The notes: generated from the letters alone by a model not told the origin. A stretch of 54,036 bases of DNA from an uncultured Acidimicrobiaceae bacterium (GCA_964016255.1 CAXHFF010000001.1:1-54036); one strand, 5' to 3'; counted from the first letter of the stretch, positions 5,798 through 20,889 are shown. Program-made: numbers and translations.

Positions 5798-6892
5798 TTA
5801 GTAATTCATAATTTCGATAACGGGCACATACATTTCCTCCGGAGTTGTACCCCCGTGGTAGCCAACCAAGCTTCCTCTCAAATGCTTTGGAAAAATTATA
5901 TATCCATCTTCTAATAAAAAGCAATGGTCGGGATAAAGCCTTTTACTTAAATCTGTTTCTGGATTACCTAACAATTTTCTAATCTCTTCAGAAGTAAGAA
6001 ATCGTCCTGGCACATCTTTAAATATTTTCTTAACCTTATGAAAATCTCCATTGATATATACACTTCTTTGATCTCCAAAAATCTTAATATCATCTGTGTA
6101 ATCTAAATAAACTCTATTTTTCTCTGAAATATTTGTAAGGCCATGGTCAGCGGTGATGACAGTATACATTTTTCTTGAGTGTGAATTGTTTAAATTTTTT
6201 ATAAATTTTTCAAAGATATCAATTTCTTTATGCCACTCCTCGCTACCAACACCAAATACATGAGCTGAAATATCAATGTTTGGATAATAAATAAAGTTAA
6301 AACGATTATCTAAAACAGAAGAATCACTAATTATTTCATTTAATTCATCAGTATCTTTGTATCCAACTTGATGAGAGTCTTTATAAATGTATTCAGACAA
6401 TGCACTCTTTATAAGGTCTTTAGGTTGAATGTTATTAGATGTAATGCCTTTAGATTTAAGAATTGTCCATATCGTTTTATTATCTTTGATATCGATGTCT
6501 TTCAATATTGATTTATTGTCTTGATTCCAGTTCAGGGCATTAATCAGACCATGCTCATTTCTATCAAAAAGGTAGTAACCAAGAATGGCTGTATCTACAG
6601 GTTTAGAAACGTAATTAATAGTGCTTAAAGCGACATTTGTAGAACTCGGAAAGGTTGAGTTCACGGAAAATGAATTTGTATTATTTAAAAAATCAGACCT
6701 CGAAATTTTTAAATTTTCAGTACCTAGACCATCAGCTAAAACAAAGTTTATTGTCTCTGCCTTTAATATTTCAGAATTAAGTTTTACTTCGTATTCTTCA
6801 GAAAATATATCCTCATTTAGTACGATATTAAAAATTTTTTTAGATAAGTCTAGTAAGTTGCTTTTTCCAAAAATATTGTTTAAATGATCCAT
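5798..6892 (-). CDS. Alkaline-phosphatase superfamily protein (type I phosphodiesterase / nucleotide pyrophosphatase-like)
   Basis: 364 aa. Metal-ligand motifs NFVLADGLGTENL, VITADHGLTN and GYHGGTTPEEMYVP are typical of the superfamily. 16 nt upstream of the DUF4349-like gene on the same strand. Confidence 0.7.
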   Translation of the reverse strand: MDHLNNIFGKSNLLDLSKKIFNIVLNEDIFSEEYEVKLNSEILKAETINFVLADGLGTENLKISRSDFLNNTNSFSVNSTFPSSTNVALSTINYVSKPVDTAILGYYLFDRNEHGLINALNWNQDNKSILKDIDIKDNKTIWTILKSKGITSNNIQPKDLIKSALSEYIYKDSHQVGYKDTDELNEIISDSSVLDNRFNFIYYPNIDISAHVFGVGSEEWHKEIDIFEKFIKNLNNSHSRKMYTVITADHGLTNISEKNRVYLDYTDDIKIFGDQRSVYINGDFHKVKKIFKDVPGRFLTSEEIRKLLGNPETDLSKRLYPDHCFLLEDGYIIFPKHLRGSLVGYHGGTTPEEMYVPVIEIMNY

Positions 6893-6968
6893 AAAAAAAG
6901 TTTACAAACAATTACGCTCAACTTTCAAATAAAACTAAAATTTCCTAAGGGTTGGTTAAAATCAAATT

Positions 6969-7334
6969 ATGAATTCTTATTTTCAGGAGTACGCAACAGT
7001 AGCAGTATTGCTAGCAGTGGGCATTATATTTATGCTTATTTTGACATCGATTGCAGCCATTCTCAGACCTAATAATCCCTCTCCTGAAAAGCTAACAACC
7101 TATGAGTCAGGTGTTGACCCAGTGGGAACTGGTTGGAGCCAGACATACATCCGGTACTATATTTTTGGCTTACTATTTGTAATTTTTGACGTTGAAGCAG
7201 TATTCATATTCCCATGGGCAATTAATCTTGAGAAGTTAGGTTATTTCGGTTTAATTGAAATGTTGGTATTTATTTTTATTTTGTTGATTGGTTTAATTTA
7301 CGCAATTAGAAAGGACGTCTTGAAATGGGAGTAG
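6969..7334 (+). CDS. nuoA: NADH-quinone oxidoreductase subunit A
   Basis: 121 aa, 3 [11 protein letters not shown]...[24 protein letters not shown] matches the NuoA/ND3 signature. First gene of the nuo cluster. Confidence 0.92.
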
Positions 7335-7822
7335 TTGATAAATTTGGATTACCAAAACCTATATCATCAGTTTTAAACTGGGCAAGGTCATACTCACTGT
7401 GGTATTTTCAATTCGGCCTGGCCTGTTGCGCTATAGAAGTTATGGCTGTAAGTGGACCTAGGCATGATTTTATGAGACTAGGAATTATTCCATTGCCAGC
7501 TTCACCAAGGCAAGCTGATCTTATGGTTGTAGCAGGAACAGTTACCGACAAAATGGCACCGGCAGTAAAAAGACTTTATGATCAAATGCCAGAACCAAAA
7601 TATGTAATTTCTATGGGTTCATGTTCGAATAGTGGTGGCCCATATTGGGATTCTTATTCCGTTACCAAAGGTGTAGATCAACTTATACCCGTCGACGTGT
7701 ATGTACCTGGATGTCCACCAAGACCCGAAGCTTTACAAGAAGGAATAATTCTCCTGCAAGAAAAAATTAGAGGAGAAGATATGAAAGAAAAATGGAAAGC
7801 AGATCAAAATGAACCTGTCTAA
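7325..7822 (+). CDS. nuoB: NADH-quinone oxidoreductase subunit B
   Basis: 165 aa. N2 cluster ligands in [18 protein letters not shown] and VPGCPPRPE. Confidence 0.95.
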
Positions 7823-8360
7823 CAATGCAGAGTTTATAGAATCCCTCTCCTCAAAATTTCCAAATTTAGAAAACAATTTTGACACACTAAAAATAAAAGT
7901 CAAGACATCTGATTGGACAAGTACAGCCTCGCAGCTTAAAGATGAATTCAATCTCACATACTTTTCTTGGCTTAGTGCTATTGACTGGGAAAATGAAGTT
8001 TCCGTAGGGGACCCTCCAAAAGAACCTATATCACCTTGTTTTGAAGTAATATTTTGTTTATCGGATTCAATTGATGGAAATGTTGTTCTCGTCTCTACAG
8101 ATATTGAGAAAGACAATGCAACTATTCCTTCCTTGGTCGAGGTCTTTGCAGGTTCTAATTGGCATGAACGTGAGGCATATGAAATGTTTGGTATTGAATT
8201 CAGTGATCATCCAAATCTTGAAAAAATGTATCTTCCAGACGATTATGAAGGAAATCCCATGCTTAAATCATTTGAATTAATTAGTAGAGAGGTAAAACCC
8301 TGGCCTGGGGAAGTTGATGTGGAGGGAATGCCAGAAGACGGATCAGAGGGAGGTAGTTAA
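7809..8360 (+). CDS. nuoC: NADH-quinone oxidoreductase subunit C
   Basis: 183 aa. [22 protein letters not shown] is the 30-kDa subunit signature. Position between nuoB and nuoD. Confidence 0.9.
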
Positions 8361-8361
8361 G

Positions 8362-9558
8362 ATGGATGATATTTTAAACGCTGGTAATATCCCTTATGTC
8401 TCAGAGGCATCAGTTTCAGTTGAAATAGAAACTGAAGATATGACTTTAAACATAGGCCCGCAGCACCCCTCAACACATGGTGTTTTAAGGTTAGTAGCAA
8501 AAGTAGATGGAGAAAAAATTTCAAGTGTTGAGCCGGTATTGGGTTATATGCATAGAGGGTATGAAAAACTTGCAGAGGTTAGGACGTACCCACAAATAAC
8601 AACACTGGTAAATAGAATTGACTGGGTTTCAGGTTTTGCCAATGAGATACCTTTTATTGCTGCAACAGAAAAATTAATGGAAATAGAAGCACCAGAAAGA
8701 GCAAAGCACATTAGATTAATCCTCACTGAAATGGCAAGAATAGCATCCCATTTTGTATTCAACGGTGCTTATGCACTTGAAATAGGTGCATTGACTCCAA
8801 TATTTCTTGCAATGGAAGATAGGGAGAGAATTCTCGACCTAATTGAATCAGTGACAGGTGGTAGATTTCATCCAAACTTTAATAGGATTGGTGGCATAAA
8901 ACCAGCTGCAGGTGCAGGGCCAACAACTAAGAAAAATATACAAGATTTACCAGCTGGATTTTATCAAGAAACTAGAGACGCAATGGAGAAAGTTCTTGAA
9001 GCTGTTGAAAGAATGGAAGATTTAGTTGGAGGTAATGAGGTCTTTAAAGTCAGAACTAAGGGAGTGGGAATTATATCTAAAGAACTTGCTGAAGAGTACG
9101 GAGTTTCTGGTCCAATACTAAGAGCCTCAGGTGTAAAGTTTGACTTAAGAACACAGACTGATTTCTTACCTTATGACAAATTTGACTATGAAATTCCTGT
9201 AGGAGAAAATGGCGATTGTTATGATCGTTGGTATGTTCGATTAATGGAGATGAAAGAGTCGGCAAAAATCATACTCCAGGCAATTGACTCTATGCCAAGT
9301 GGACCTCTACAAACAAAAGTTCCTAAGGTCATAAAAGTTCCAAAGGGTCAGTCTTATGTAAGAACTGAAAATCCAAAAGGTGAAATGGGATTCTATGTTA
9401 TTTCTGAAGGTGGACTTGGACCTTATAGGCTTAAAATTAGGACACCGTCCTTTAGTAACATATCAATCCTTCCTGTATTACTTGAAGATCAGTTGTTACC
9501 CGATTTAATTGCCATTATGGGAAGTTTAGATTTTGTTTTAGGAGATGTTGATAGATGA
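8362..9558 (+). CDS. nuoD: NADH-quinone oxidoreductase subunit D
   Basis: NIGPQHPSTHGVLRL and C-terminal SLDFVLGDVDR signatures. Start moved from the ORF-track 8314 to ATG 8362: GGAGG at 8349-8353, and nuoC stops at 8360. Confidence 0.93.
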   Translation: MDDILNAGNIPYVSEASVSVEIETEDMTLNIGPQHPSTHGVLRLVAKVDGEKISSVEPVLGYMHRGYEKLAEVRTYPQITTLVNRIDWVSGFANEIPFIAATEKLMEIEAPERAKHIRLILTEMARIASHFVFNGAYALEIGALTPIFLAMEDRERILDLIESVTGGRFHPNFNRIGGIKPAAGAGPTTKKNIQDLPAGFYQETRDAMEKVLEAVERMEDLVGGNEVFKVRTKGVGIISKELAEEYGVSGPILRASGVKFDLRTQTDFLPYDKFDYEIPVGENGDCYDRWYVRLMEMKESAKIILQAIDSMPSGPLQTKVPKVIKVPKGQSYVRTENPKGEMGFYVISEGGLGPYRLKIRTPSFSNISILPVLLEDQLLPDLIAIMGSLDFVLGDVDR

Positions 9559-10535
9559 TTGATGTATCTCAAGTAATGGTAACAGCAGGTATTGTCCTAG
9601 CTTTTGCTTTAAATGGGGCAGTCATATTTACAATTCTTGATGTTAAAGGCGCTTCATGGATGCAAAGACGACCTGGACCTCTTCATGTTGGCCTAAGAGG
9701 ATTTATTTTTCCATTAGCTGAAATAATTAAATTTTTTCAGAAAGAAGACATAACACCTACAAATGTTGATTCAGCAGTATTTAAGTGGGCACCGGCATAT
9801 GTCCTTGCTTCTGTTTTCGGCTTATTTGTTGTTGTGCCAATCAGTCCAACTTTGGTTGGTAGTGATTTAGACTTAGGAGTTTTTTACTTATTGGCTATAA
9901 GTTCCTTATCAACACTAGGCGTTCTTACTGCCGGATGGTCATCTGCAAACAAATACTCATTAATGGGTGGGATACGTGCTGCAGGACAGTTAATTGCCTA
10001 TGAACTTCCATTAATTCTTGCAGTTGTTGGCGTTGTAATCCAAGCTGAAACAATGTCTCTTGTGGGAATAGTGGAAAAACAGATAGAGTTTGGACTTCCA
10101 TTTGTACTTTCTGGACAGGGTTTAGCTTTCTTAATATTTATGATTGCTGCGACAGCTGAAATGATGAGAGTTCCATTTGATATGCCAATAGGTGAATCTG
10201 AACTTGTTAGTGGATTTTTAACAGAGTATTCCGGAGTAAGATTCCTAATTTTTTATATAGCCGAATACATGAACATGTTTATTCTATGTGCTGTAGCTTC
10301 TACATTGTTTTTAGGTGGATATCATGTGCCTCTCTTGCCGGTAGAGTGGGTTAATTTTTATGGACCAGTTGTATTAATAACTAAAACAGTTTTTCTTGGT
10401 TTTATTCTAGTTTTAGTCAGGTGGTCTTTCCCAAGATTTAGAGAAGATCAACTTCAAAATTTAGCATGGAAAGTATTAATTCCTCTTGCTCTCCTTAATA
10501 TATTGATAACATCCATAATGAAAGTTGTATTTTAA
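9555..10535 (+). CDS. nuoH: NADH-quinone oxidoreductase subunit H
   Basis: 326 aa, about 8 TM. TEYSGVRFLIFYIAEYMNM is the ND1/NuoH signature. The ATG overlaps the nuoD TGA (ATGA). Confidence 0.93.
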   Translation: MIDVSQVMVTAGIVLAFALNGAVIFTILDVKGASWMQRRPGPLHVGLRGFIFPLAEIIKFFQKEDITPTNVDSAVFKWAPAYVLASVFGLFVVVPISPTLVGSDLDLGVFYLLAISSLSTLGVLTAGWSSANKYSLMGGIRAAGQLIAYELPLILAVVGVVIQAETMSLVGIVEKQIEFGLPFVLSGQGLAFLIFMIAATAEMMRVPFDMPIGESELVSGFLTEYSGVRFLIFYIAEYMNMFILCAVASTLFLGGYHVPLLPVEWVNFYGPVVLITKTVFLGFILVLVRWSFPRFREDQLQNLAWKVLIPLALLNILITSIMKVVF

Positions 10536-11021
10536 ATGAAAAAATTTAGACCTAAATTACCTGGTTTTTTGACAGGAATGAAAATTCTTCTATTTAATAT
10601 GATCAAGACGCTTTCCCCCCTAAGTCCAAATCCAAATGTTAACTATCCATTTGAAAAAGAAATTGTCGCCCCAAGAGCAAGGGGAGTTATTGCCCTTGAT
10701 CAGGACGCCTGTACTAGTTGTATGCTTTGTGCAAGACAGTGCCCAGACTGGTGTATTTACATAGAAGGCCATAAAGAATTACAACCTCCTACAAAACCTG
10801 GAGGTAGACAACGAAGTAGAGCGGTTCTCGATAGGTTTGATATAGACTACGCTTTATGCATGTATTGTGGGATTTGCGTTGAAGTTTGTCCTTTTGATGC
10901 ATTGTTTTGGACACCGGAATATGAATATTCAGAATACAATATGGGAGACATGCTTCATGATAAAACAAGACTTGATCAATGGTTAAATACAGTACCTGAA
11001 GTCGAAGGTTTAGAGAGTTAA
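10536..11021 (+). CDS. nuoI: NADH-quinone oxidoreductase subunit I (2x[4Fe-4S])
   Basis: 161 aa. Two ferredoxin motifs, CTSCMLCARQCP and CMYCGICVEVCP. Confidence 0.93.
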   Translation: MKKFRPKLPGFLTGMKILLFNMIKTLSPLSPNPNVNYPFEKEIVAPRARGVIALDQDACTSCMLCARQCPDWCIYIEGHKELQPPTKPGGRQRSRAVLDRFDIDYALCMYCGICVEVCPFDALFWTPEYEYSEYNMGDMLHDKTRLDQWLNTVPEVEGLES

Positions 11022-11022
11022 A

Positions 11023-11541
11023 ATGGAAGCACTTGACATCATCAGTTATTTTTTACTATTGGGTCTCTTACTGGTTGCTGTCAAAGTTGTAACAACCTCT
11101 AATGTAATTCATGCCGCAATTTCACTAGTTTTTACTCTAGCCATAACAGCAGGTACATTTTTATTACTATCTGCTGAATTTGTTGCACTCGTGATTGTCC
11201 TTGTATACATAGGTGCTGTAATTGTTCTTTTTCTATTTGGAATAATGATTACAAGAGCACCATTAGGACAAAATGCTGAGTTGGACAATGAAAAAAATAA
11301 AACCATGGCATTCATAGTATCCTTGTCAATTTTTGGAATTTTCTCTTACGTCATGTTGAACACCTTTGATGCTCAAATAACGGTAACATCTGGAACTTCA
11401 ACTGAATTATTAGGAGAAATTTTGTTGAGTAGATTTGTGTTTCCTTTTGAAGTTGTTTCTTTCGTTCTGTTAGCGGCTCTAATTGGAGGTATCACTCTAG
11501 CAAGACAAGATAATGCCCTCATGGATGAGAACCAAATATGA
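11023..11541 (+). CDS. nuoJ: NADH-quinone oxidoreductase subunit J
   Basis: 172 aa hydrophobic protein in the conserved I-J-K position. LVYIGAVIVLFLFGIMI is typical of ND6/NuoJ. Confidence 0.85.
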   Translation: MEALDIISYFLLLGLLLVAVKVVTTSNVIHAAISLVFTLAITAGTFLLLSAEFVALVIVLVYIGAVIVLFLFGIMITRAPLGQNAELDNEKNKTMAFIVSLSIFGIFSYVMLNTFDAQITVTSGTSTELLGEILLSRFVFPFEVVSFVLLAALIGGITLARQDNALMDENQI

Positions 11542-11843
11542 GTGTTCAACCTTTCTTAATTGCTGCAGCTGGTTTGTTCTCTATTGGGATATATGGAATT
11601 TTAGTTAGAAGAAATGTTGTAATGGTTCTTTTATCTATTGAGTTAATCTTAAATGCAGTAAATATCAACTTTGTTGTTTTTGATGCCATGCTTGGAGATG
11701 CTTTATTACAGGGTCAAATTTTTACCATTTTCATAATCACTATTGCTGCAGCTGAAGTAGGTATTGGCTTAGCTATTGTTCTGATGTTGTTCAGGAACAG
11801 AAAAACTGCAAACATAAATGAATTTGATTTATTGAAATGGTAA
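11538..11843 (+). CDS. nuoK: NADH-quinone oxidoreductase subunit K
   Basis: 101 aa, 3 TM. LSIELILNAVNINFV and AAAEVGIGLAIVL are typical of ND4L/NuoK. Confidence 0.9.
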   Translation: MSVQPFLIAAAGLFSIGIYGILVRRNVVMVLLSIELILNAVNINFVVFDAMLGDALLQGQIFTIFIITIAAAEVGIGLAIVLMLFRNRKTANINEFDLLKW

Positions 11844-13855
11844 GCAGTAATTTAACCTTTTTTTTAGCTGAAGGAAAGCCCACATATACAGATGGTGGTG
11901 TCGCTGCTGAATATACTTGGATAATTGTTGTACTACCATTTTTAGCGGCTCTTTTAATTACTTTTTTAGGAAAATATCTTCCACTTCAAGGAGCTGAAAT
12001 TGCTCTTGGCACTATCGGTTTTATTTTTGCTTTTAGTTCCTACCTTCTTTATCTAAATGTTACTGAAGGAGTAGCCTCTGAATTTTTTATTAATGTTGGA
12101 AGCATCGGCTCATTCGATCTTGAATTCGGATGGGTTGTAGACGGTCTTTCAATAATGATGTATTTTGTGGTCGGCACTGTAGCTACTTTAGTCTTTATAT
12201 ACGCAACAAATTATATGAAAGGGGAGGTTAGATATACTTTTTTCTTTACATCCCTTACTTTATTTGCTGGGAGTATGTTGGTACTCGTTTCCTCACCAAC
12301 GTTATTACAACTCTTAATTGGGTGGGAGCTCGTAGGTGTTTGTTCTTATTTATTAATTGGGCACTACTGGGAAAAGAAAGAGAATTCATCTGCAGCAATG
12401 AAAGCATTTATAACTAATAAAATTGCAGATGTCGGCTTAATGATCGGAATAATCGTACTAGCTCTTTCTACGGGTACATTGAGAATAAGTGAAATTCTTT
12501 ATCAATCTACTCATGATTACGAATCCCTTAAGTCAGTCGCATATCTAGCTGGAGTTCTTTTATTTATTGGGGCAATGGGAAAAAGTGCACAGTTTCCTCT
12601 CCATGTTTGGTTACCTGACGCAATGGCAGGTCCAACACCAGTATCTGCATTAATGCATGCTGCAACAATGGTTACAGCGGGTGTGTATTTACTTGCAAGA
12701 ATGTTTCCTTTTTATGAAGGTATGGCAAGTCAAGCGTTAGACGTAGTTTTACTTTTTGGTGTTATAACTCTCTTTACTGCGGGATTAATAGCTATAGTCC
12801 AAGATGATTTAAAAAAAGTACTTGCATATTCAACCGTTAGTCAGCTTGGATACATGGTTGCAGCTATAGGTTCCGGAGCATACACTGCTGCATTATTTCA
12901 CCTCTGGACACATGCATTTTTTAAAGCATTACTTTTTCTAGGTGCCGGCTCAGTTATTCATGCTGTACACACCAATAGCATGAGGGAAATGGGTGGCCTC
13001 AGAAAAGAAATGCCTAGAACATATATAACATTTATATTAGGAACAGTTGCTCTTGCCGGACTCCCACCTCTTGCCGGTTTTTTCTCAAAAGATGAAATAC
13101 TCGCATCTTTAAACCATGGAGGGTACAGCACTTATTTCGCTATAGCTGTTGCTGGGGCATTTATAACTGCTTTCTATATGACTAGAGCTGTAGTCCTAAC
13201 CTTCTTTGGGGAGTACAGGGGTAATGGACATCCACATGAGTCTGATTCTATGATGACCACTCCTCTTGTTGTACTTGCTGGTTTTGCTGTAGTTGCAGGT
13301 TGGGTAAATATTCCAGGAATATATACAGGTTTTACAGACTGGGTAACAACAAGGAAAAATCCTATAGTAGAGTATCACCCAGAGTCATTTGACTACTTTG
13401 CTTTGAGCAGCGGGTTGCTTGCAGGTTTAGCCGGTATTGGTTTGGCCTATTATGTGTACCAAATATTGGGTAGACCTGAAGATGGCGATCAAAAGATTAA
13501 AGTTGAGCCGATATGGAATATTTTAGAAAATAAATATTACCTAGATGACTTTTATTTCAAGTTCATTATAAATCCAACAAAATCAACACTTTCAAATATA
13601 GTCGACAGGTTCAATACAAACATTTTGGATAGGACAGTAAATATGTTTGGAGTAGCGGCTACATTTTTAGGAAAAATTGTGTACGAAAAATTTGACCAGG
13701 GTGGAATTGATAGAGCATTAAATGTATCCTCGTCTTCAACTGATGCATTGGGTGCTAGAGTAAAGCTTCTTCAAACTGGAAAAGCTCAACAGTATATTAT
13801 GTACTTTTTAAGCGGAGTAATAGTAATTAGCTTATTAATTTTGTTAGTGTTATAG
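11837..13855 (+). CDS. nuoL: NADH-quinone oxidoreductase subunit L (antiporter-like)
   Basis: 672 aa. WELVGVCSYLLIGHYW and GKSAQFPLHVWLPDAMAGPTPVSALMHAATMVTAGVYL. Confidence 0.93.
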   Translation: MVSSNLTFFLAEGKPTYTDGGVAAEYTWIIVVLPFLAALLITFLGKYLPLQGAEIALGTIGFIFAFSSYLLYLNVTEGVASEFFINVGSIGSFDLEFGWVVDGLSIMMYFVVGTVATLVFIYATNYMKGEVRYTFFFTSLTLFAGSMLVLVSSPTLLQLLIGWELVGVCSYLLIGHYWEKKENSSAAMKAFITNKIADVGLMIGIIVLALSTGTLRISEILYQSTHDYESLKSVAYLAGVLLFIGAMGKSAQFPLHVWLPDAMAGPTPVSALMHAATMVTAGVYLLARMFPFYEGMASQALDVVLLFGVITLFTAGLIAIVQDDLKKVLAYSTVSQLGYMVAAIGSGAYTAALFHLWTHAFFKALLFLGAGSVIHAVHTNSMREMGGLRKEMPRTYITFILGTVALAGLPPLAGFFSKDEILASLNHGGYSTYFAIAVAGAFITAFYMTRAVVLTFFGEYRGNGHPHESDSMMTTPLVVLAGFAVVAGWVNIPGIYTGFTDWVTTRKNPIVEYHPESFDYFALSSGLLAGLAGIGLAYYVYQILGRPEDGDQKIKVEPIWNILENKYYLDDFYFKFIINPTKSTLSNIVDRFNTNILDRTVNMFGVAATFLGKIVYEKFDQGGIDRALNVSSSSTDALGARVKLLQTGKAQQYIMYFLSGVIVISLLILLVL

Positions 13856-13863
13856 GAGGAAAA

Positions 13864-15453
13864 GTGGAAATAGTAACTAATAGTTTTGAATTCTTAGAGA
13901 ATGGATTGGGCATAACCTTAGTCGTATTTTTCCCGCTAGTAAGTGCTTTAATAGTTGCATTATTGCCTAAAAAACAAGAATTACTAATTAAACTAACTGC
14001 ACTTGGTTCTTCAGTAATCACATTCATCCTAAGTGCAATTATTGCTATTCAGTTTGACTATTCTAAAGCAGAACAATTTCAGTTGGGAAGCAAACTTTCT
14101 TGGATTGAAGCTATAAATTCTAATTATGAAATTGGTATTGATGGAATATCCTTACCCCTGTTACTTCTTTCAACTTTTATAACTGTATTAGCAATAATTT
14201 ATTCTTTTGAGCACCTCCCAGAACCTAAGAGTCCAAAAGGAATGATGGCTTTAATCTTAATTCTAGAAACAGGAATGAATGGCACGTTTGTGGCATTAGA
14301 TCTAATACTATTCTTTGTATTCTTTGAGCTTGTCCTACTACCTATGTACTTCATGATTGGAATTTGGGGAGACAGAACAATGAGAACCGTTGCGGGTCTT
14401 AAAAATGAGGTTGAGACTCGTTTATATGCAAGTATTAAGTTTTTTGTTTTTACACTCTTTGGGTCAGCATTTATGTTGCTTGGCTTTTTAGGGCTTTATT
14501 TCCGGGGAGCCAAAACTTTCAGCATTCCTGAGTTAATTGAATTGGGTACAAACGGTGCTTTCACAGGTACTTTTGCAACATTAGTGTTTGCTGTATTATT
14601 TTTAGGTTTTGCAGTTAAGGTTCCAATGTGGCCTCTGCACACCTGGCTACCTGATGCACACACAGCAGCACCAACGGTTGGATCGGTGTTACTAGCTGCA
14701 ATACTTTTAAAATTGGGATCATACGGATTTGTTAGAATTGCCTTACCGATTCTTCCTGAGCAAGCTAAAGTTTGGGCACCTGCGATCGCAATATTATCAG
14801 CTATTGGTATTATTTACGGTTCTCTGGCTTGTCTTGCACAAACTGACCTAAAGAGATTGATAGCCTTTTCCTCAGTTGGGCATATGGGTTTCGTAATGCT
14901 TGGAATATCTTCATTAACTTCTATTGGGATAAATGCTGCAATGATAGGGATGGTTGCTCACGGAGTCATTACTGGATTACTCTTCTTCTTATCAGGCTCA
15001 ATGGCACATACTTATCACACCCGAGACATGGGAAGACTTGGTGGAAATATGAAACTTCTTCCAAAGACAGGAGCACTATTAGCTTTTACAGCAATGGCAT
15101 CACTAGGGCTACCTGGATTAGCAGGTTTCTGGGGTGAATTTATGGCACTATTAGGAGCATATAATCCACTGCCAGGCCTTAATGTTACAATTTTTAGAAC
15201 ATCTATGGTTGCTGGCGCAATAGGTACAGTTTTAACAGCTGGATATCTTCTCTGGATGCTTCAAAGAGTAAATTTAGGAGAGCCAAGTGATGAATGGAAA
15301 GATAAAGAACTTCACGATGCAGATGCGTATGAATTAGCCGCATGGATACCTCTTGTTATTTTAACAATACTTATTGGAGTTTTTCCTAAGTTAATTTTCG
15401 GATCTACAAATGATGCTGTAATCAGTTTGGTTACTAAAGCATTCGGAGGCTAA
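13864..15453 (+). CDS. nuoM: NADH-quinone oxidoreductase subunit M (antiporter-like)
   Basis: 529 aa. VKVPMWPLHTWLPDAHTAAPTVGSVLLAAILLKLGSYG. GTG start preceded by AGGAGGA. Confidence 0.93.
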   Translation: MEIVTNSFEFLENGLGITLVVFFPLVSALIVALLPKKQELLIKLTALGSSVITFILSAIIAIQFDYSKAEQFQLGSKLSWIEAINSNYEIGIDGISLPLLLLSTFITVLAIIYSFEHLPEPKSPKGMMALILILETGMNGTFVALDLILFFVFFELVLLPMYFMIGIWGDRTMRTVAGLKNEVETRLYASIKFFVFTLFGSAFMLLGFLGLYFRGAKTFSIPELIELGTNGAFTGTFATLVFAVLFLGFAVKVPMWPLHTWLPDAHTAAPTVGSVLLAAILLKLGSYGFVRIALPILPEQAKVWAPAIAILSAIGIIYGSLACLAQTDLKRLIAFSSVGHMGFVMLGISSLTSIGINAAMIGMVAHGVITGLLFFLSGSMAHTYHTRDMGRLGGNMKLLPKTGALLAFTAMASLGLPGLAGFWGEFMALLGAYNPLPGLNVTIFRTSMVAGAIGTVLTAGYLLWMLQRVNLGEPSDEWKDKELHDADAYELAAWIPLVILTILIGVFPKLIFGSTNDAVISLVTKAFGG

Positions 15454-15454
15454 T

Positions 15455-16936
15455 ATTTCCATTAATTACTTTGCAATCTCCAGTGAATTAATTGTTGTTT
15501 TCACTATTGTAGCAACCATATTTTTTGATCTTCTTTTACCTAGGAAGTCAAAATTTTATGTAGCATTAGTTGCTCTTTTAGGCTCGCTAGTTTCATTTAT
15601 ACCCCTAATTTTTCAATGGGTTAATTATGAAAATCCCTTAATCCTTTTTGAAGGAAGCTATGTTGTTGATAAATTTTCCATAATTTTAAAAGGACTTTTT
15701 ATTCTAGTAACCTACCTTACATTCTTACTTTCAATTAATTTTATAGAGAGTGACAGATACTACCAAGGTGAGTATTACTATCTCCTATTAAGCTCACTAC
15801 TCGGAGCATTAGTTGTTACTTCGTCAAGAGACATGCTGACACTATTTATTGGAATTGAATTAGCATCTGCCCCGATGTTTCTATTATCAGGTTGGAAAAA
15901 AGGTGATCAAAAATCTAATGAGGGAGCTATTAAATTCTTCTTATTAGGAGTATTGTCCGCTTCGCTTATTTTATATGGCTTCTCCTTGCTTTATGGACTA
16001 ACAGGAGAGCTAATCTTTTCTGAGATCTCCAAAATATTATTAGTAACTAATCTCTCAAACTCACCTGCGGCACTGTTAAGTGTTATGTTAATATTGGCCG
16101 GTATAGGGTTTAAAATTTCTGTTGTACCTTTCCATTCGTGGGCACCGGATACATATGAAGGTTCACCACTTCCTGTAACTGCATACTTGTCAGTAAGCTC
16201 AAAAGCAACGGGATTCGTAGCTTTAATGATTATTCTTACAAAAGTATTCCCTGATTCAGGTTCGAGCTGGGGAATTATTTTAGTAATAATTTCAGCACTA
16301 ACAATGTTTATAGGTAATTTATCTGCACTCCAACAATCCAATCCCGTTAGGCTCTTGGCATACTCCTCAATTGCTCAAGCTGGATTCATTTTAGCTCCAC
16401 TTGCTGTAGCTGGAATAACGGGAGATTATGCGGATGGTATTTATGCTAGTGTTACATATTTAATCATTTATGCATTTATGAATCTTGGAGCTTTCCTTGT
16501 TGTAAATGTCCTTATCAATACCAGTGGTAGCAATAATATTTATGAGTGGGGAGGACTTGCAAAGCACCAACCCTTAACTTCTGTTTTCGCAACAGTATTT
16601 TTCTTTTCACTTGCTGGTATACCACCATTAGGTGGCTGGTTTGCAAAGTTTGTAGTTTTTAGGAGTTTATTAAGTACGGGTGAAGTTTATGGGGTAGCGC
16701 TAGCAATTATTGGAGCAATCAATGCGGTAATAGGACTTGTTTTCTATGCAAGGATTTCAAAAATAATATGGATGGATTCTCCATCTGAAAATATTACAGT
16801 TAACACTAAACCTACGCTACTAGGCCCCTTAAAAGTTGTAGGCTTTATAAGTCTCGTCATCACATTTTTAGCCGGAATTTTTCCAAACATATTTTCAAAT
16901 CTTGGCAATGCTTCTGCATTATTTTTTAATAGTTAA
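15455..16936 (+). CDS. nuoN: NADH-quinone oxidoreductase subunit N, probable non-canonical ATT start
   Basis: FKISVVPFHSWAPDTYEGSPLPVTAYLSVSSKATGF. The frame is open from 15422 and encodes NuoN-like N-terminal helices upstream of the ORF-track Met at 15833. There is no ATG/GTG/TTG in that stretch. ATT at 15455 lies 5 nt after GGAGG (15445-15449). Confidence 0.8.
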   Translation: MSINYFAISSELIVVFTIVATIFFDLLLPRKSKFYVALVALLGSLVSFIPLIFQWVNYENPLILFEGSYVVDKFSIILKGLFILVTYLTFLLSINFIESDRYYQGEYYYLLLSSLLGALVVTSSRDMLTLFIGIELASAPMFLLSGWKKGDQKSNEGAIKFFLLGVLSASLILYGFSLLYGLTGELIFSEISKILLVTNLSNSPAALLSVMLILAGIGFKISVVPFHSWAPDTYEGSPLPVTAYLSVSSKATGFVALMIILTKVFPDSGSSWGIILVIISALTMFIGNLSALQQSNPVRLLAYSSIAQAGFILAPLAVAGITGDYADGIYASVTYLIIYAFMNLGAFLVVNVLINTSGSNNIYEWGGLAKHQPLTSVFATVFFFSLAGIPPLGGWFAKFVVFRSLLSTGEVYGVALAIIGAINAVIGLVFYARISKIIWMDSPSENITVNTKPTLLGPLKVVGFISLVITFLAGIFPNIFSNLGNASALFFNS

Positions 16937-16941
16937 TAAGG

Positions 16942-17967
16942 TTGTCGAACTCTAACTTCATAAATCATCTCCAAGAAAAGTATCAACGTGACTATGTATT
17001 TTTTGATGAGTATATGGAGGTGTGCCTGTATTGAGAATATGGCTTTGTTAATACCACAAAAATTATATCTAGTAAGGATGGTGATTTCTTAACGTCACCT
17101 GAAGTCTCGAATCACTTTGGTTTGTTTATTTCAAATTGGATAGATAGTAATAAAATCAAAAATAATATAGTAGAAATAGGTCCGGGTACTGGTTCACTAG
17201 CTTCTCAAATTATAAATTATTCCAAAAAGAATCTCTTTCTTATTGAAAAATCTGAAACAGCATTTCTGACTTTGAAAGACAAAGAGTTCAATGTTTTTAA
17301 AACTTTAGACAAGGTTCCAGCTGAGGACATTGATCTTATTTACATGAATGAAGTACTTGATAATATCTCTTGTTCTATTGGTGTGTATAAGGAACATAAC
17401 TGGTTTGAAAAAGTAATCCAATTAGATTCTGAGTCATTAAGTTACAACCTTGCTCCTATACGCGCGGATAGTTTATCTTGGATAAAACAAAATAACATCG
17501 AACCTTTGGATGATTTTGAAGTTGAGATACAAACAAATATAACAACTTATCTTTCCAAGATTGTTGAACAATTTAACCCAAAATTTTTACTCATAATCGA
17601 CTACGGATACGAGAATCATGAAAGGTCGGGCAAACCCTACAAATCCCTCATAAGAACATATAAGAACCACCACCTAGCAGGGGAGACAATACTGCAACCA
17701 ACCTCTACTGATATAACTTATGATGTAAATTTTTCTAGTGTTAAAACATCTTTATCTGATCTAGGTTTTGCTGTTGAGTTATTGTCCCAGAAAGAATTCT
17801 TAGAACGCCATGGTTTCATGAGTTTTTATAAAAAAATGCAAAGTGAATTTCATAATGCTGATGGTTTAGATAAATTGAAAATAAAATCTGATCTTGTTGG
17901 GCTGGAGGCAATTTGCAACGAACGCGGACTAGGTGGCTTCAAGATTCTTTCAGCCAAAAAAATATAA
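16942..17967 (+). pseudogene. MidA/NDUFAF7-family (DUF185) SAM-dependent methyltransferase interrupted by an in-frame TGA at 17032-17034
   Basis: Same frame on both sides of the TGA: FFDEYMEVCLY-stop-EYGFVNTTKIISSKDGDFLTSPEVSNHFG (family hallmark GDFxTSPE), then VEIGPGTGSLASQI (SAM motif) and LLIIDYGY. No canonical start between the TGA and TTG 17122. The 5' end (TTG 16942) is uncertain. Confidence 0.7.
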
Positions 17968-17991
17968 ACTACATCATTTATAATTAAAAAT

Positions 17992-18831
17992 ATGAATCAA
18001 GTAAAAACTACTGTACTTTTAACCCTGATGAGTCTAGTTGTACTCTTTACTGCCCAAACACTTGGTTATAATCTGATTTTTTCAATAACCTTTGCTGCTA
18101 TTTTTAACTTTTTAATATATTTCTATTCAGGAAAGATTGCACTATCTTCAACCAAAGCTAAAGAAATTACTGAGGGCGAATATGAAGATGTAAGAGGCAT
18201 TGTTAAATATTTAACTCAAAAAGAGAAAATGCCTATGCCAAGCTTATATATCATTGAAAACGATCAACCTAATGCCTTTGCTACAGGTAGAAATCCTAAA
18301 AATGCAAGTATCGCAGTTACAACTGGAATCTTAAAAGTATTAAATAATGATGAGCTCGAAGGTGTTTTGGCACATGAAATTTCACATATAAAGAACAGAG
18401 ACATTTTAGTGTCAAGTATTGCAGCAATGCTCGCCTCAACAATATCTTTTATGTCAAGAAGTGTTTTATGGGGTGGAGGCAACAGAAATCGAAATACTCA
18501 CCCTTTATTTTTTATAATTGCTCTGATAGCAGCCCCATTAGCATCAGTAATAATACGAATGGCAATATCCAGAACGCGCGAATATGGTGCGGATAGGACT
18601 GGATCAGATATTTCTGGAAATCCTTTAGCACTTGCTTCAGCGCTAGAAAAGATTGAAGCGTACTCAAAACTCCCGATGAATGTAAACCCTGCTGTAAGTC
18701 AGCTGTTTATATCGGATCCTTTAAAAGCATTATCTGGGGGAGGTATGAGAAAACTTTTTTCAACACACCCACCAACAGCTGAAAGAGTCAGAAGATTAAG
18801 GGAGGACGCAAGTGGTATTCGGTACGGATAA
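17992..18831 (+). CDS. htpX: Zinc metalloprotease HtpX (peptidase M48)
   Basis: 279 aa, 4 TM. NAFATGRNPKNASIAVTTGIL, HEISHIKNRD (HExxH) and EYGADR. Confidence 0.92.
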   Translation: MNQVKTTVLLTLMSLVVLFTAQTLGYNLIFSITFAAIFNFLIYFYSGKIALSSTKAKEITEGEYEDVRGIVKYLTQKEKMPMPSLYIIENDQPNAFATGRNPKNASIAVTTGILKVLNNDELEGVLAHEISHIKNRDILVSSIAAMLASTISFMSRSVLWGGGNRNRNTHPLFFIIALIAAPLASVIIRMAISRTREYGADRTGSDISGNPLALASALEKIEAYSKLPMNVNPAVSQLFISDPLKALSGGGMRKLFSTHPPTAERVRRLREDASGIRYG

Positions 18832-19162
18832 TAATGAAACAATTGCACCAGAAAATCTAGAGAGCTATCTCAGTAATGGTTATAAATTAATCGATGTTCG
18901 TGAACAGGATGAATGGGATGCCGGTCATCATCCTGAAGCTATACATATTCCAATGGGAACAATTCCTCAAAAGATCGATGATTTTAAAACAAGTGATAAT
19001 TACATTATCATTTGTCGTTCTGGAGCGAGATCTGGAAGAGTTAGTTCTTTTATGAAAAATGAGGGTTTCGATTCTCTCAATCTGACTGGAGGCATGAAAG
19101 AGTTGTCTTTGAGCTCAAAAAAAATAGTTGATTTAAATGGCAATAATGGGACAGTCATCTAA
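18812..19162 (+). CDS. Rhodanese-domain sulfurtransferase
   Basis: 116 aa. IDVREQDEWDAGHHPEAIHIP and active-site loop CRSGARS. GTG start overlapping the htpX 3' end by 20 nt, with no alternative in-frame start nearby. Confidence 0.85.
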   Translation: MVFGTDNNETIAPENLESYLSNGYKLIDVREQDEWDAGHHPEAIHIPMGTIPQKIDDFKTSDNYIIICRSGARSGRVSSFMKNEGFDSLNLTGGMKELSLSSKKIVDLNGNNGTVI

Positions 19163-19171
19163 AATCATTTT

Positions 19172-20128
19172 GTGATAATTTGTATTGGAAATGCAATGGT
19201 AGATTCTCTTCAAAAAATTGAAGAAGAGGTAATTGATAAATTAAGTTTAAACAAAGCCAGAATGACCCTAGTTGATAAAGATAGGTCGAACATTTTATTA
19301 GATTCGATGACTAATCCTACGAGAGCTGCAGGTGGTTCAGCTGCAAATACAGCGTATTGGGCCGCACAATTAGGTGGAGATGTTGGCTTTATAGGGAAAA
19401 TCTCAAATGATGAACTTGGAGAACAATTCAAAGCTAGTGTCATTGATTCTGGACTCAAAGACTTTACTGTATTTGAGTCAGAGGATAATCAAACTGGACA
19501 TTGCGCAATATTCATAACTCCAGATGGGGAACGTACAATGAATACCTATCTAGGAGCCGGCGCATTTCTCTCAATTGAAGATTTAGATGATAAAGCAATA
19601 GAGTCAGCCGAAATCCTCTACATGGAGGGATATCTTTGGGATAGGCCTACCAGTAAGGAAGCATTTTTGCACGCTGCTAAATTAAATAAATTATCTGGTG
19701 GGAAAAATGCTATTACTTTATCAGATGTTTTTTGTGTTGAGATGCACAGAGATAGTTTTATTGAATTCATCAAAGAAAGCATTGATTTTGTATTCTGTAA
19801 TGAGGAAGAAATTATGGCATTGTCTCTGAAGGAGACTAATGAAGATGCTTTTGAATACTTTGAAAAAGAGTTTCCAAACTTAGAAGAATTAGTATGCACG
19901 CTTGGTCCAAACGGTGCTGTAGTAATTAGCAAAGGAGAAAAAGTCCATTATGAAGCAACTGAAGCAGAAGTTGTTGATAAAACAGGTGCGGGAGATTATT
20001 TTGCTGCAGGATATCTATACGGCTTGCAAAAAAAACTAACTATAGAAGAATCTGCTGATATTGCTAATAGAAGTGCAGCTCACGTCATCAGTGAAGTTGG
20101 CGTCAGGCCTACTAAAAACTTTTCTTAG
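19172..20128 (+). CDS. PfkB-family carbohydrate/nucleoside kinase (adenosine-kinase-like)
   Basis: 318 aa. AAGGSAANTA near the N-terminus and DKTGAGDYFAAGYLYG (PfkB signature 2). GTG start. Confidence 0.85.
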   Translation: MIICIGNAMVDSLQKIEEEVIDKLSLNKARMTLVDKDRSNILLDSMTNPTRAAGGSAANTAYWAAQLGGDVGFIGKISNDELGEQFKASVIDSGLKDFTVFESEDNQTGHCAIFITPDGERTMNTYLGAGAFLSIEDLDDKAIESAEILYMEGYLWDRPTSKEAFLHAAKLNKLSGGKNAITLSDVFCVEMHRDSFIEFIKESIDFVFCNEEEIMALSLKETNEDAFEYFEKEFPNLEELVCTLGPNGAVVISKGEKVHYEATEAEVVDKTGAGDYFAAGYLYGLQKKLTIEESADIANRSAAHVISEVGVRPTKNFS

Positions 20129-20889
20129 TTATTCCAACCAATTAATTGATAAATAACTTTTTCATCCCCTTCAAATTGTGGCGAATAAGAGCTACTAAGA
20201 TCCAACTTTATTGGTTCATGAATTTTATTTTTAGAAAAAATAATTATCTCATTTTCAGTATCTAATGCAACAATACTGTTTCCATCTGGAGACCACCTCA
20301 AAGATTCAAAGTAATAGTTTGTTGGTGCTTCAACATTAAAGACTTCAATTATATTTGAATTTTTTTGGTAGTAAATGCCAGCTGATCTTGCACTCATTTC
20401 CCTCATGTCCCAGGAGCTAAGAAGCTTTTCCCCTAAGGAGTTAACTTCATAGGCACTTCTACCTATCGAGACATCTTCATTGTTTACTTTTTTAATCTCA
20501 CTATTTTTAGGGTTTATCACCAGTGTCATTTCAGAATTAGAGGAGTTGTCCCAATAACGTAAGACTAGATTCTGATTTTCATCTATTTCTGTATTGTTCA
20601 AGTAGATGTCATACGAATATTGATATAAATCACTGGTACAGATTACTTTTTCTTCATCAGTAATCGCTGTTGAGATATCAACTTTAAAGATACATTGATC
20701 TACGATATCTGGAGCAGGTGGAAGAATATTTGAACTTTGTATTTCAACATGATAAAAAATTTCTCCGTTAAGCTCCTGATTTATCTCTGTACTGTATTCA
20801 GGCAGAGGAATTATTCCAAATGATGCAACAATACCGATAGAAAGGAACAAAATTATAAGTGATTGAATTAAAAATGACTTTTTCTTCAC
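20125..20889 (-). CDS. Hypothetical exported or membrane-anchored protein
   Basis: 254 aa. N-terminal hydrophobic helix FLIQSLIILFLSIGIVASFGII. WSPDGNSIVALD resembles beta-propeller blade motifs (TolB/DPP-IV type). 4-nt overlap with the upstream gene and 4-nt convergent overlap with the PfkB gene. Confidence 0.6.
   Translation of the reverse strand: MKKKSFLIQSLIILFLSIGIVASFGIIPLPEYSTEINQELNGEIFYHVEIQSSNILPPAPDIVDQCIFKVDISTAITDEEKVICTSDLYQYSYDIYLNNTEIDENQNLVLRYWDNSSNSEMTLVINPKNSEIKKVNNEDVSIGRSAYEVNSLGEKLLSSWDMREMSARSAGIYYQKNSNIIEVFNVEAPTNYYFESLRWSPDGNSIVALDTENEIIIFSKNKIHEPIKLDLSSSYSPQFEGDEKVIYQLIGWNN

Follow-up and report, generated by a model that had tools for sequence, protein, structure and literature searches.

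The 54,036-nucleotide stretch of DNA from an uncultured Acidimicrobiaceae bacterium analyzed here (GCA_964016255.1, CAXHFF010000001.1:1-54036; hereafter, the window) carries on its plus strand, at positions 6969 to 16936, an operon of 11 complex I-type genes from which nuoE, nuoF, and nuoG, encoding the NADH-oxidizing N-module, are absent. We call its products Nuo2 and those of a canonical 14-gene operon in the same genome Nuo1. Because the tree of the NuoD subunit sets a clade of 52 sequences apart from the Nuo1 form, the phylogenetic evidence indicates that Nuo2 is an ancient paralog, not a decayed copy, and that it forms a monophyletic clade across Actinomycetota, conserved throughout Candidatus Actinomarinales. 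The reading we tentatively favor is that Nuo2 would act as a proton-pumping ferredoxin:menaquinone oxidoreductase with an unusual tryptophan in its acceptor site and an arginine modified by a MidA-type methyltransferase.

Neither the 11-gene operon without nuoEFG nor its possible link to coenzyme F420 is a discovery of this study, as both have been published before. Lopez-Perez et al. 2020 (PMC7771536) reported that in all Ca. Actinomarinales the heliorhodopsin gene is flanked by two nuo clusters, of which one has no nuoEFG, and proposed that this one may use F420 by analogy with the Fpo enzyme of Methanosarcina. Bulzu et al. 2021 (bioRxiv 10.1101/2021.02.01.429150) described a same-strand block consisting of afuABC (an Fe(III) ATP-binding cassette transporter), heliorhodopsin, nuoABCDHIJKLMN, NDUFAF7, htpX, a rhodanese protein, and adenosine kinase, with a 14-subunit nuo operon near the 11-subunit block; the relatives' loci examined here show exactly this gene order. 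The 11-subunit class has been surveyed by Moparthi and Hagerhall 2011, with actinobacteria among its holders and no designated partner protein, and the names nuoA2 to nuoN2 are in use in the Streptomyces literature. What is new here is the Nuo2 clade, the tryptophan, arginine, and deletion features of its NuoD subunit (NuoD2), the link to a methyltransferase, the failure to find FpoF/FrhB in 27 Actinomarinales genomes although half of the sampled Actinomycetota have such a protein, and the presence of the oxidoreductase KorAB together with a ferredoxin where no 2-oxoglutarate dehydrogenase E1 was detected.

An 11-gene nuo operon accompanies a canonical complex I operon

Open reading frame (ORF) listing and Pfam scans revealed 11 consecutive, tightly packed genes in the order nuoA-B-C-D-H-I-J-K-L-M-N, with all 11 frames open. 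The sequence at positions 9555 to 9558 reads ATGA, such that the nuoH start codon (ATG, 9555 to 9557) overlaps the nuoD stop codon (TGA, 9556 to 9558), leaving no space for nuoE, nuoF, and nuoG between nuoD and nuoH. When the NuoE, NuoF, and NuoG proteins of the genome itself were used as tblastn queries, no match was found in the window, and matches were obtained on contig C6 only. The gene order and the overlap noted in a preliminary description of this stretch are therefore borne out by the Pfam order, the ATGA tetranucleotide, and tblastn.

According to its ORF map and the family matches of NuoF and NuoD, contig C6 harbors the canonical 14-gene nuoA-N operon, including nuoE, nuoF, and nuoG, with nuoN cut by the contig end. 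Contig C6 and the window belong together, since relatives carry both NuoD types on one contig: of 61 genomes from the order, nearly all encode the two, typically about 27 kb apart on the same strand, with Nuo1 lying upstream of Nuo2. The organism thus has an ordinary NADH complex I plus an 11-gene copy devoid of the N-module. The two sets of paralogs share 30 to 50% identity (NuoI, 30%; NuoC, 36%; NuoD, 38%; NuoB, 50%). One of the two explanations offered by the preliminary description, that nuoEFG are encoded elsewhere, is literally true, but these genes reside inside a complete paralogous operon; in the same way, the nuoEFG cluster elsewhere in the genome that it had regarded as contrary to its proposal does exist on contig C6 but leaves the donor of the 11-subunit enzyme unsettled.

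Nuo2 is widespread in Actinomycetota and forms a separate NuoD clade

To define the distribution of Nuo2, we used a phylum sample of 151 Actinomycetota genomes, each with at least 85% completeness, of which 104 gave a NuoD2-type match; sixty loci were annotated with the Nuo1 and Nuo2 proteins of this genome. A tree of 163 NuoD sequences, computed with a quick IQ-TREE run and supported by the Shimodaira-Hasegawa-like approximate likelihood ratio test (SH-aLRT), placed the window protein within a clade of its class (SH-aLRT 97). That clade falls inside the 52-row clade (SH-aLRT 100), which contains all operon-encoded and orphan NuoD2 proteins of the phylum and is separate from Nuo1D, the NuoD of Nuo1. 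The deeper backbone of the tree is poorly supported, and we therefore leave the sister group of the Nuo2 clade unnamed. In a search of 50%-representative sequences, the nearest clusters beyond the window's own were just 47% identical, a few of them carrying archaeal names, so the placement of the clade rests on the phylum genome sample.

Among the sixty loci, 11-gene operons without nuoEFG were found in many families, and in many of these the operon sits in tandem directly behind Nuo1. The preliminary description had taken Streptomyces as a model of the 14-gene arrangement; this background is incomplete, as Streptomyces also has a nuoA2-N2 set and Nuo2 operons of 11 genes occur commonly throughout Actinomycetota. 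Head-to-tail pairs of Nuo1 and Nuo2 were seen at loci L025, L029, L031, L032, L034, L036, L038, L039, L044, L046, and others, sometimes with a polyprenyl diphosphate synthase gene between the two. A second class comprises orphan NuoD2-type genes with no further nuo gene within 20 kb. Orphan loci with the tryptophan site and the arginine in an HRG or HRA motif are L030, L040, L048, L051, L052, L056, L057, L059, L060, L064 to L066, L068, L071, and L073, and three large genomes (7.5 to 9.2 Mb) have only an orphan NuoD2 gene and no operon at the locus examined. Such orphan proteins might serve as a swap-in NuoD for Nuo1. A few more distant variants with 11 to 13 genes are also present; at L069, L070, and L072, a distant nuo operon of one family, encoding a tyrosine-type NuoD, has NuoF-like and NuoG-like genes after nuoI, not between nuoD and nuoH. 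When the ORFs flanking 42 Nuo2 loci were clustered, the only recurrent neighbors were a polyprenyl synthase, an M48 peptidase, the methyltransferase, and a phosphodiesterase-like gene, with no conserved flavoprotein or ferredoxin partner gene beside Nuo2.

NuoD2 has an unusual quinone site in an otherwise largely conserved enzyme core

Using the numbering of Thermus Nqo4, the equivalent of His38 is kept in NuoD2 (PSTHGV), while the quinone-ligating Tyr87 is replaced by tryptophan (RIDWVS), so that the His38/Tyr87 pair typical of NUO11 and NUO14 enzymes that react with quinone is incomplete. NuoD2 also lacks approximately 25 residues found in Nuo1D, Thermus Nqo4, and cyanobacterial NdhH, a deletion read from alignments with proteins of solved structure and with the NuoD2 set rather than from the 163-row alignment, and it contains an arginine in the segment GYMHRGYEK where Nuo1D has threonine (GYLHTG). 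The tryptophan, the arginine, and the deletion are common to all 52 clade members; more distant 11-subunit types in the phylum retain the tyrosine but share the arginine and the deletion with NuoD2. Judged by these alignments, the Tyr87-to-Trp replacement is a clade-wide trait of the NuoD2 paralog. Comparison with solved structures likewise separated the two NuoD proteins: Nuo1D was closest to Mycobacterium smegmatis NuoD (458 bits), followed by Thermus Nqo4 (452 bits), whereas NuoD2 scored 341 bits with Thermus, 329 with cyanobacterial NdhH, and 250 with M. smegmatis. The same replacement has been noted in NuoD of piericidin-producing Streptomyces and read as self-resistance (Degli Esposti 2015), and the same author quotes mutagenesis in which an engineered Tyr-to-Trp substitution in canonical complex I gives inhibitor resistance.

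Nearly all of the residues expected for electron transfer and proton translocation are kept. Read in translation, NuoB2 has all four ligands of cluster N2 (tandem Cys, including a VPGCPP motif), NuoI2 has both CxxCxxCxxxCP motifs for clusters N6a and N6b with eight cysteines present, and NuoK2 has both membrane glutamates (SIELIL and AAAEVG). In pairwise alignment with the Nuo1 counterpart, NuoL2 keeps the glutamate of transmembrane helix 5 (TM5), TM7 Lys, TM8 His, and TM12 Lys. By the same approach, NuoN2 has TM5 Glu, TM7 Lys, TM8 Lys/His, and TM12 Lys, and NuoM2 keeps TM5 Glu, TM7 Lys, and TM8 Lys; in TM12 of NuoM2, the glutamate of Nuo1M (YER) is aligned with a histidine (AHT).

A MidA/NDUFAF7-like methyltransferase gene is linked to NuoD2

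A gene for a MidA/NDUFAF7-like methyltransferase (16942 to 17967, plus strand; PF02636, E value of 3e-27) begins five nucleotides after nuoN2, and its product contains the motif GDFLTSPEVS, which is of the GDFxTSPE type. In this assembly, the gene is interrupted by an in-frame TGA at 17032 to 17034, while in relatives L006 to L008 it is intact and encodes 344 amino acids. Seven relatives have a serine codon at this position (TCA, TCT, or TCC), and as the two closest relatives by this region have TCA, the TGA differs from their codon by one C-to-G change, which may reflect either a true nonsense allele or a mistake in the assembly.

The arginine of the HRG motif, present in NuoD2 and not in Nuo1D, is presumably equivalent to Arg85 of bovine NDUFS2, an assignment made by alignment with the bovine sequence. 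PF02636 was detected in 54 of the 151 Actinomycetota genomes, and in about 26 genomes a comparison of Pfam coordinates put it no more than about 15 kb from a NuoD2-type gene; Pfam coordinates were used for this distribution, and tblastn with the Actinomarina protein missed distant copies. The gene follows nuoN2 in the class of Actinomarina, and in several other families it adjoins an orphan NuoD2 gene in convergent orientation. This recurrent neighborhood is evidence for a putative functional link between the methyltransferase and NuoD2. NDUFAF7 dimethylates Arg85 of NDUFS2, the NuoD homolog (PMC3829151), and by analogy the NDUFAF7-like enzyme probably modifies the HRG arginine of NuoD2.

Ferredoxin is the favored candidate donor of Nuo2

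Our preference for a ferredoxin:menaquinone oxidoreductase, which we hold with caution, is based on the clade and NuoD2 features above, the failure to find FpoF/FrhB, the presence of KorAB with a ferredoxin, and the failure to detect the E1 component of 2-oxoglutarate dehydrogenase. KorA and KorB are both encoded on contig C15 of this genome, and 26 of 27 Actinomarinales genomes contain the POR_N domain. The 2-oxoglutarate dehydrogenase E1 (TIGR00239) scored above its cut-off in none of five genomes that are 90 to 94% complete. Because KorAB is present and no such E1 was found, the tricarboxylic acid (TCA) cycle probably reduces ferredoxin in each turn, and this ferredoxin needs to be re-oxidized. 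An 81-amino-acid, single-cluster ferredoxin is encoded in genome G001 and in this genome. NdhS (PF11623), the ndhS-like docking subunit that the preliminary description had proposed to look for, gave no match in five genomes, with a positive Synechococcus control. A deletion-type NuoD is the only NuoD of genomes G139 (100% complete) and G124 (91%), which have no NuoF, and the consensus of the literature is that enzymes of the 11-subunit class (NUO11) use ferredoxin or have no fixed partner.

We envision that the two-subunit 2-oxoacid:ferredoxin oxidoreductase KorAB, apparently replacing 2-oxoglutarate dehydrogenase in the TCA cycle, would supply reduced ferredoxin, from which single electrons would enter at the exposed clusters of NuoI2. 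The electrons would then pass to N2 in NuoB2 and on to quinone at the NuoD2/NuoH2 site. This site would be unusual in having tryptophan in place of the quinone-ligating tyrosine and in keeping the arginine that NDUFAF7 dimethylates in mitochondria, here probably modified by the NDUFAF7-like enzyme. Quinone reduction would drive proton pumping via NuoH, NuoA, NuoJ, NuoK, NuoL, NuoM, and NuoN.

Several observations weigh against this proposal. The Nuo2-bearing genomes G092, G165, and G122, which are of the same class, are without a POR_N enzyme, and KorAB therefore is not a universal source of the donor; no single donor explanation suits all lineages. Every family with a tryptophan-type NuoD2 also has F420 biosynthesis, and Nuo2 nearly always co-occurs with Nuo1, usually adjoining it, which is equally compatible with the sharing of NuoEFG. 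The sole ferredoxin found is of the single-cluster type, and the assembly is just 73% complete. Furthermore, the mutagenesis quoted by Degli Esposti 2015 shows that an engineered Tyr-to-Trp substitution severely lowers activity with decyl-ubiquinone, so that the acceptor chemistry of Nuo2 may differ.

The sharing of NuoEFG is the first of the other explanations that need to be weighed. Nuo2 could borrow these subunits from Nuo1, giving the cell another NADH:menaquinone oxidoreductase whose quinone site differs and might, for example, be insensitive to inhibitors; such an arrangement would fit with the finding that tryptophan-type Nuo2 operons of the phylum sample are essentially always in genomes with NuoF, with their frequent position in tandem directly behind Nuo1, and with the association between Tyr87-to-Trp and resistance to inhibitors of the quinone site. 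Nevertheless, divergence between the paralogs is greatest in the subunits of the docking surface, as seen from the identities of NuoI, NuoC, and NuoD given above relative to that of NuoB, Actinomycetota with a deletion-type NuoD and no NuoF at all exist (G139 and G124), and enzymes of other phyla without the N-module function without NuoEFG. We thus consider sharing unlikely. Still less probable, in our estimation, is that Nuo2 of this lineage is a bacterial analog of Fpo/Fqo that couples electron transfer from F420H2 to menaquinone with proton pumping, an idea put forward by Lopez-Perez et al. 2020 and in the preliminary description. Consistent with a role of F420, 25 of 27 Actinomarinales genomes encode CofD, a cofD-cofE pair lies at L009, and CofE is present in all families with a tryptophan-type NuoD2, although neither CofD nor CofE was detected in the present, 73%-complete assembly and the co-distribution of F420 with Nuo2 may just reflect shared ancestry. 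F420H2 is an obligate hydride donor that needs a flavin to feed iron-sulfur clusters, yet no flavoprotein is encoded in or beside the operon; fpoF is, however, unlinked to the fpo operon in Methanosarcina too. The search for fpoF/frhB-like genes, another check named in the preliminary description, weakened the F420 proposal for this lineage: FrhB_FdhB_C (PF04432) had no match in 27 Actinomarinales genomes (this genome and 26 relatives at least 85% complete, 12 of them at least 90%) or in the four genomes from f2, f6, and f7, the families closest to the order, with a positive Methanosarcina control. A donor other than NADH is still the best reading, with ferredoxin likelier than F420H2.

Outside Actinomarinales the situation is different, and a broader version of the argument has to be considered. 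The FrhB/FpoF C-terminal domain was found in 76 of the 151 Actinomycetota genomes, in proteins of approximately 380 to 430 amino acids that combine a Fer4 dicluster with FrhB_N and FrhB_C; these proteins of FpoF architecture cover nearly the full length of the FpoF model and score far below its cut-off. Most families that have NuoD2-type genes also encode such a protein, Actinomarinales not included, and none was found in sampled CofE-positive families that lack NuoD2 (f40, f34, and f46). Since the genomes are related to one another, this co-occurrence is a lead rather than a test, but as a lead it keeps an Fpo-like role alive for other Actinomycetota lineages. In several genomes, the FpoF-like genes (L099 to L108; e.g., L099, 4531 to 5667, minus strand) lie a few kb from cofE. 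No paper describing actinobacterial FpoF-like proteins was found, and a review of F420 lists Fpo and Fqo in archaea only. It is conceivable, though we regard it as doubtful, that Nuo2 is a distinct complex I branch with a tryptophan acceptor site, a dedicated MidA-type methyltransferase, and modular input: an unlinked FpoF-like protein in most actinobacteria, which would make it the first bacterial proton-pumping F420H2:menaquinone oxidoreductase, and ferredoxin, closing a KorAB-dependent TCA cycle, in Actinomarina and its nearest families. Enzymes of the complex I type can run in both directions, and KorAB-type enzymes can also run reductively; Nuo2 might hence operate mainly in reverse, with proton motive force, for example, from a proton-pumping rhodopsin in this photoheterotroph, driving transfer from menaquinol to ferredoxin and supplying low-potential reductant. 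The operon does lie in a conserved same-strand block with heliorhodopsin and the lineage has a proton-pumping rhodopsin (PMC7771536), but a heterotroph of about 1 Mb, with neither carbon fixation nor an evident sink for reduced ferredoxin and with an oxidative TCA cycle described (PMC7771536), makes this purely speculative scheme very improbable. We find it scarcely credible that the operon is a decaying or nonfunctional duplicate. The in-frame TGA in the adjoining MidA-like gene and the lack of a canonical nuoN start codon could be taken as signs of decay; against these stand the 11 open frames, the retained cofactor ligands and channel residues, the conservation of the ATT start and of the nuoN N-terminus, NuoD2 identities of 81 to 97% over many Actinomarina genomes and abundant metagenome contigs, and the upkeep of the operon in a genome that ranks among the most streamlined on record (PMC7771536).

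Gene map and host genome

The first gene, nuoA2 (6969 to 7334), encodes 121 amino acids (PF00507, E value of 6e-35; 31% identity to Nuo1A) and, like the rest of the operon, is on the plus strand. It is followed by nuoB2 (7325 to 7822; 165 amino acids; PF01058), whose product carries cluster N2, and nuoC2 (7809 to 8360; 183 amino acids; PF00329), with a longer C-terminus than Nuo1C. The gene for the quinone-site subunit, nuoD2 (8362 to 9558), matches PF00346 in two stretches; it most likely starts at ATG 8362, giving 398 amino acids as in homologs, rather than at the upstream TTG 8314. The next genes are nuoH2 (9555 to 10535; 326 amino acids; PF00146, E value of 9e-97), nuoI2 (10536 to 11021; 161 amino acids; Fer4 families, two [4Fe-4S] clusters), nuoJ2 (11023 to 11541; 172 amino acids; PF00499), and nuoK2 (11538 to 11843; 101 amino acids; PF00420). 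Antiporter-like subunits are encoded by nuoL2 (11837 to 13855; 672 amino acids; PF00361 and PF00662) and nuoM2 (13864 to 15453; 529 amino acids; PF00361), and the last gene is nuoN2 (15455 to 16936; approximately 493 amino acids; PF00361).

The nuoN frame is open from 15422, without any ATG, GTG, or TTG codon upstream of 15833. A noncanonical ATT at 15455 is the probable start codon, because it sits 5 nucleotides downstream of GGAGG and because the N-terminus that follows it, INYFAISSELIV, is conserved in relatives, in which the DNA differences are synonymous. Gene callers shortened nuoN2 to 475 amino acids in relatives. When positions 6700 to 20300 were scanned for promoters and terminators, the signals were no better than those of shuffled sequence.

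The window has a G+C content of 36%, and the source assembly consists of 0.90 Mb in 142 contigs, with 0.35% contamination. The host is a marine Candidatus Actinomarina with a genome of about 1 Mb. NuoD2 is 97% identical in the closest genomes, and homologs with 81 to 97% identity are numerous in marine metagenomes, with the labeled ones assigned to Candidatus Actinomarina, Acidimicrobiaceae, or Actinobacteria. Two small contigs of the assembly contain further genes of respiratory type. Contig C85 (3.7 kb, 31% G+C) has a third nuoA-nuoB-nuoC set (L109, 1 to 1267), whose proteins look alphaproteobacterial (SAR11-like by eye) and whose counterpart was not found in five close Actinomarina genomes; on these grounds we rejected it as a third nuo operon of the host, and C85 probably entered the bin as contamination. 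On contig C60 (L110, 3286 to 5104), a gene for a 149-amino-acid protein with two [4Fe-4S] clusters lies directly upstream of a cytochrome b gene, and a weak COX1-like gene and cytochrome c genes are divergent from this pair; the C60 genes could constitute an unusual quinol-oxidizing module in a lineage reported to be without complex III.

Comparison with known systems

Few bacteria of the surface ocean are as abundant or as streamlined as Ca. Actinomarina, yet it spends approximately 10 kb on a second complex I-type pump. The identity of its donor would show how low-potential reductant is balanced and how much energy is gained per carbon oxidized, and the tryptophan site, the MidA link, and the co-occurrence of an FpoF-like protein with NuoD2 in other actinobacteria could serve to test for a bacterial, Fpo-like respiratory entry point for F420H2.

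The truncated nuo paralog published for Actinomarinales represents the same locus in the same lineage, with no structural difference; what differs is that the two operons are split over contigs C1 and C6 in this assembly, that the NDUFAF7-like gene contains a TGA, and that an FpoF-type subunit, expected from the published F420 suggestion, was searched for and not found. Unlike Nuo2, the canonical 14-subunit NADH:quinone oxidoreductase has NuoE, NuoF, and NuoG encoded within its operon, and in this genome these are present only in Nuo1 on C6.

Among enzymes that likewise have no N-module, those of the NUO11 class from Desulfitobacterium, Chlorobium, and Bacillus cereus (Moparthi and Hagerhall 2011) resemble Nuo2 in having 11 subunits and no dedicated partner gene, and ferredoxin has been proposed as their donor; however, a NUO11 enzyme is usually the organism's only complex I, whereas Nuo2 coexists with a 14-subunit complex, and the quinone-reacting NUO11 forms keep Tyr87 (Degli Esposti 2015) where Nuo2 has tryptophan. 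Fpo and Fqo of Methanosarcinales and Archaeoglobales share with Nuo2 a homologous 11-subunit core and the same short NuoD layout, and F420 biosynthesis genes are present in Actinomarinales relatives, but Fpo and Fqo need FpoF/FqoF, which was not found in Actinomarinales, and their acceptor is methanophenazine or a modified menaquinone. The cyanobacterial and plastid NDH-1 complex also has eleven core subunits and takes electrons from ferredoxin, and its NdhH has the HRG arginine. Ferredoxin docks on NDH-1, however, through the subunits NdhS, NdhV, and NdhO, of which NdhS was not found here, and NdhH keeps both Tyr87 and the 22-residue segment missing from NuoD2. Further counterparts are the Streptomyces nuoA2-nuoN2 set and other actinobacterial Nuo2 operons, which have the same gene order without nuoEFG; the actinobacterial Nuo2 operons encode a NuoD of the same clade, 47 to 70% identical to that of the window, with tryptophan for Tyr87, the arginine in an HR(G/A) motif, and a deletion of approximately 25 amino acids; in many of these lineages Nuo2 comes directly after Nuo1, whereas about 15 kb of other genes lie between the two operons here.

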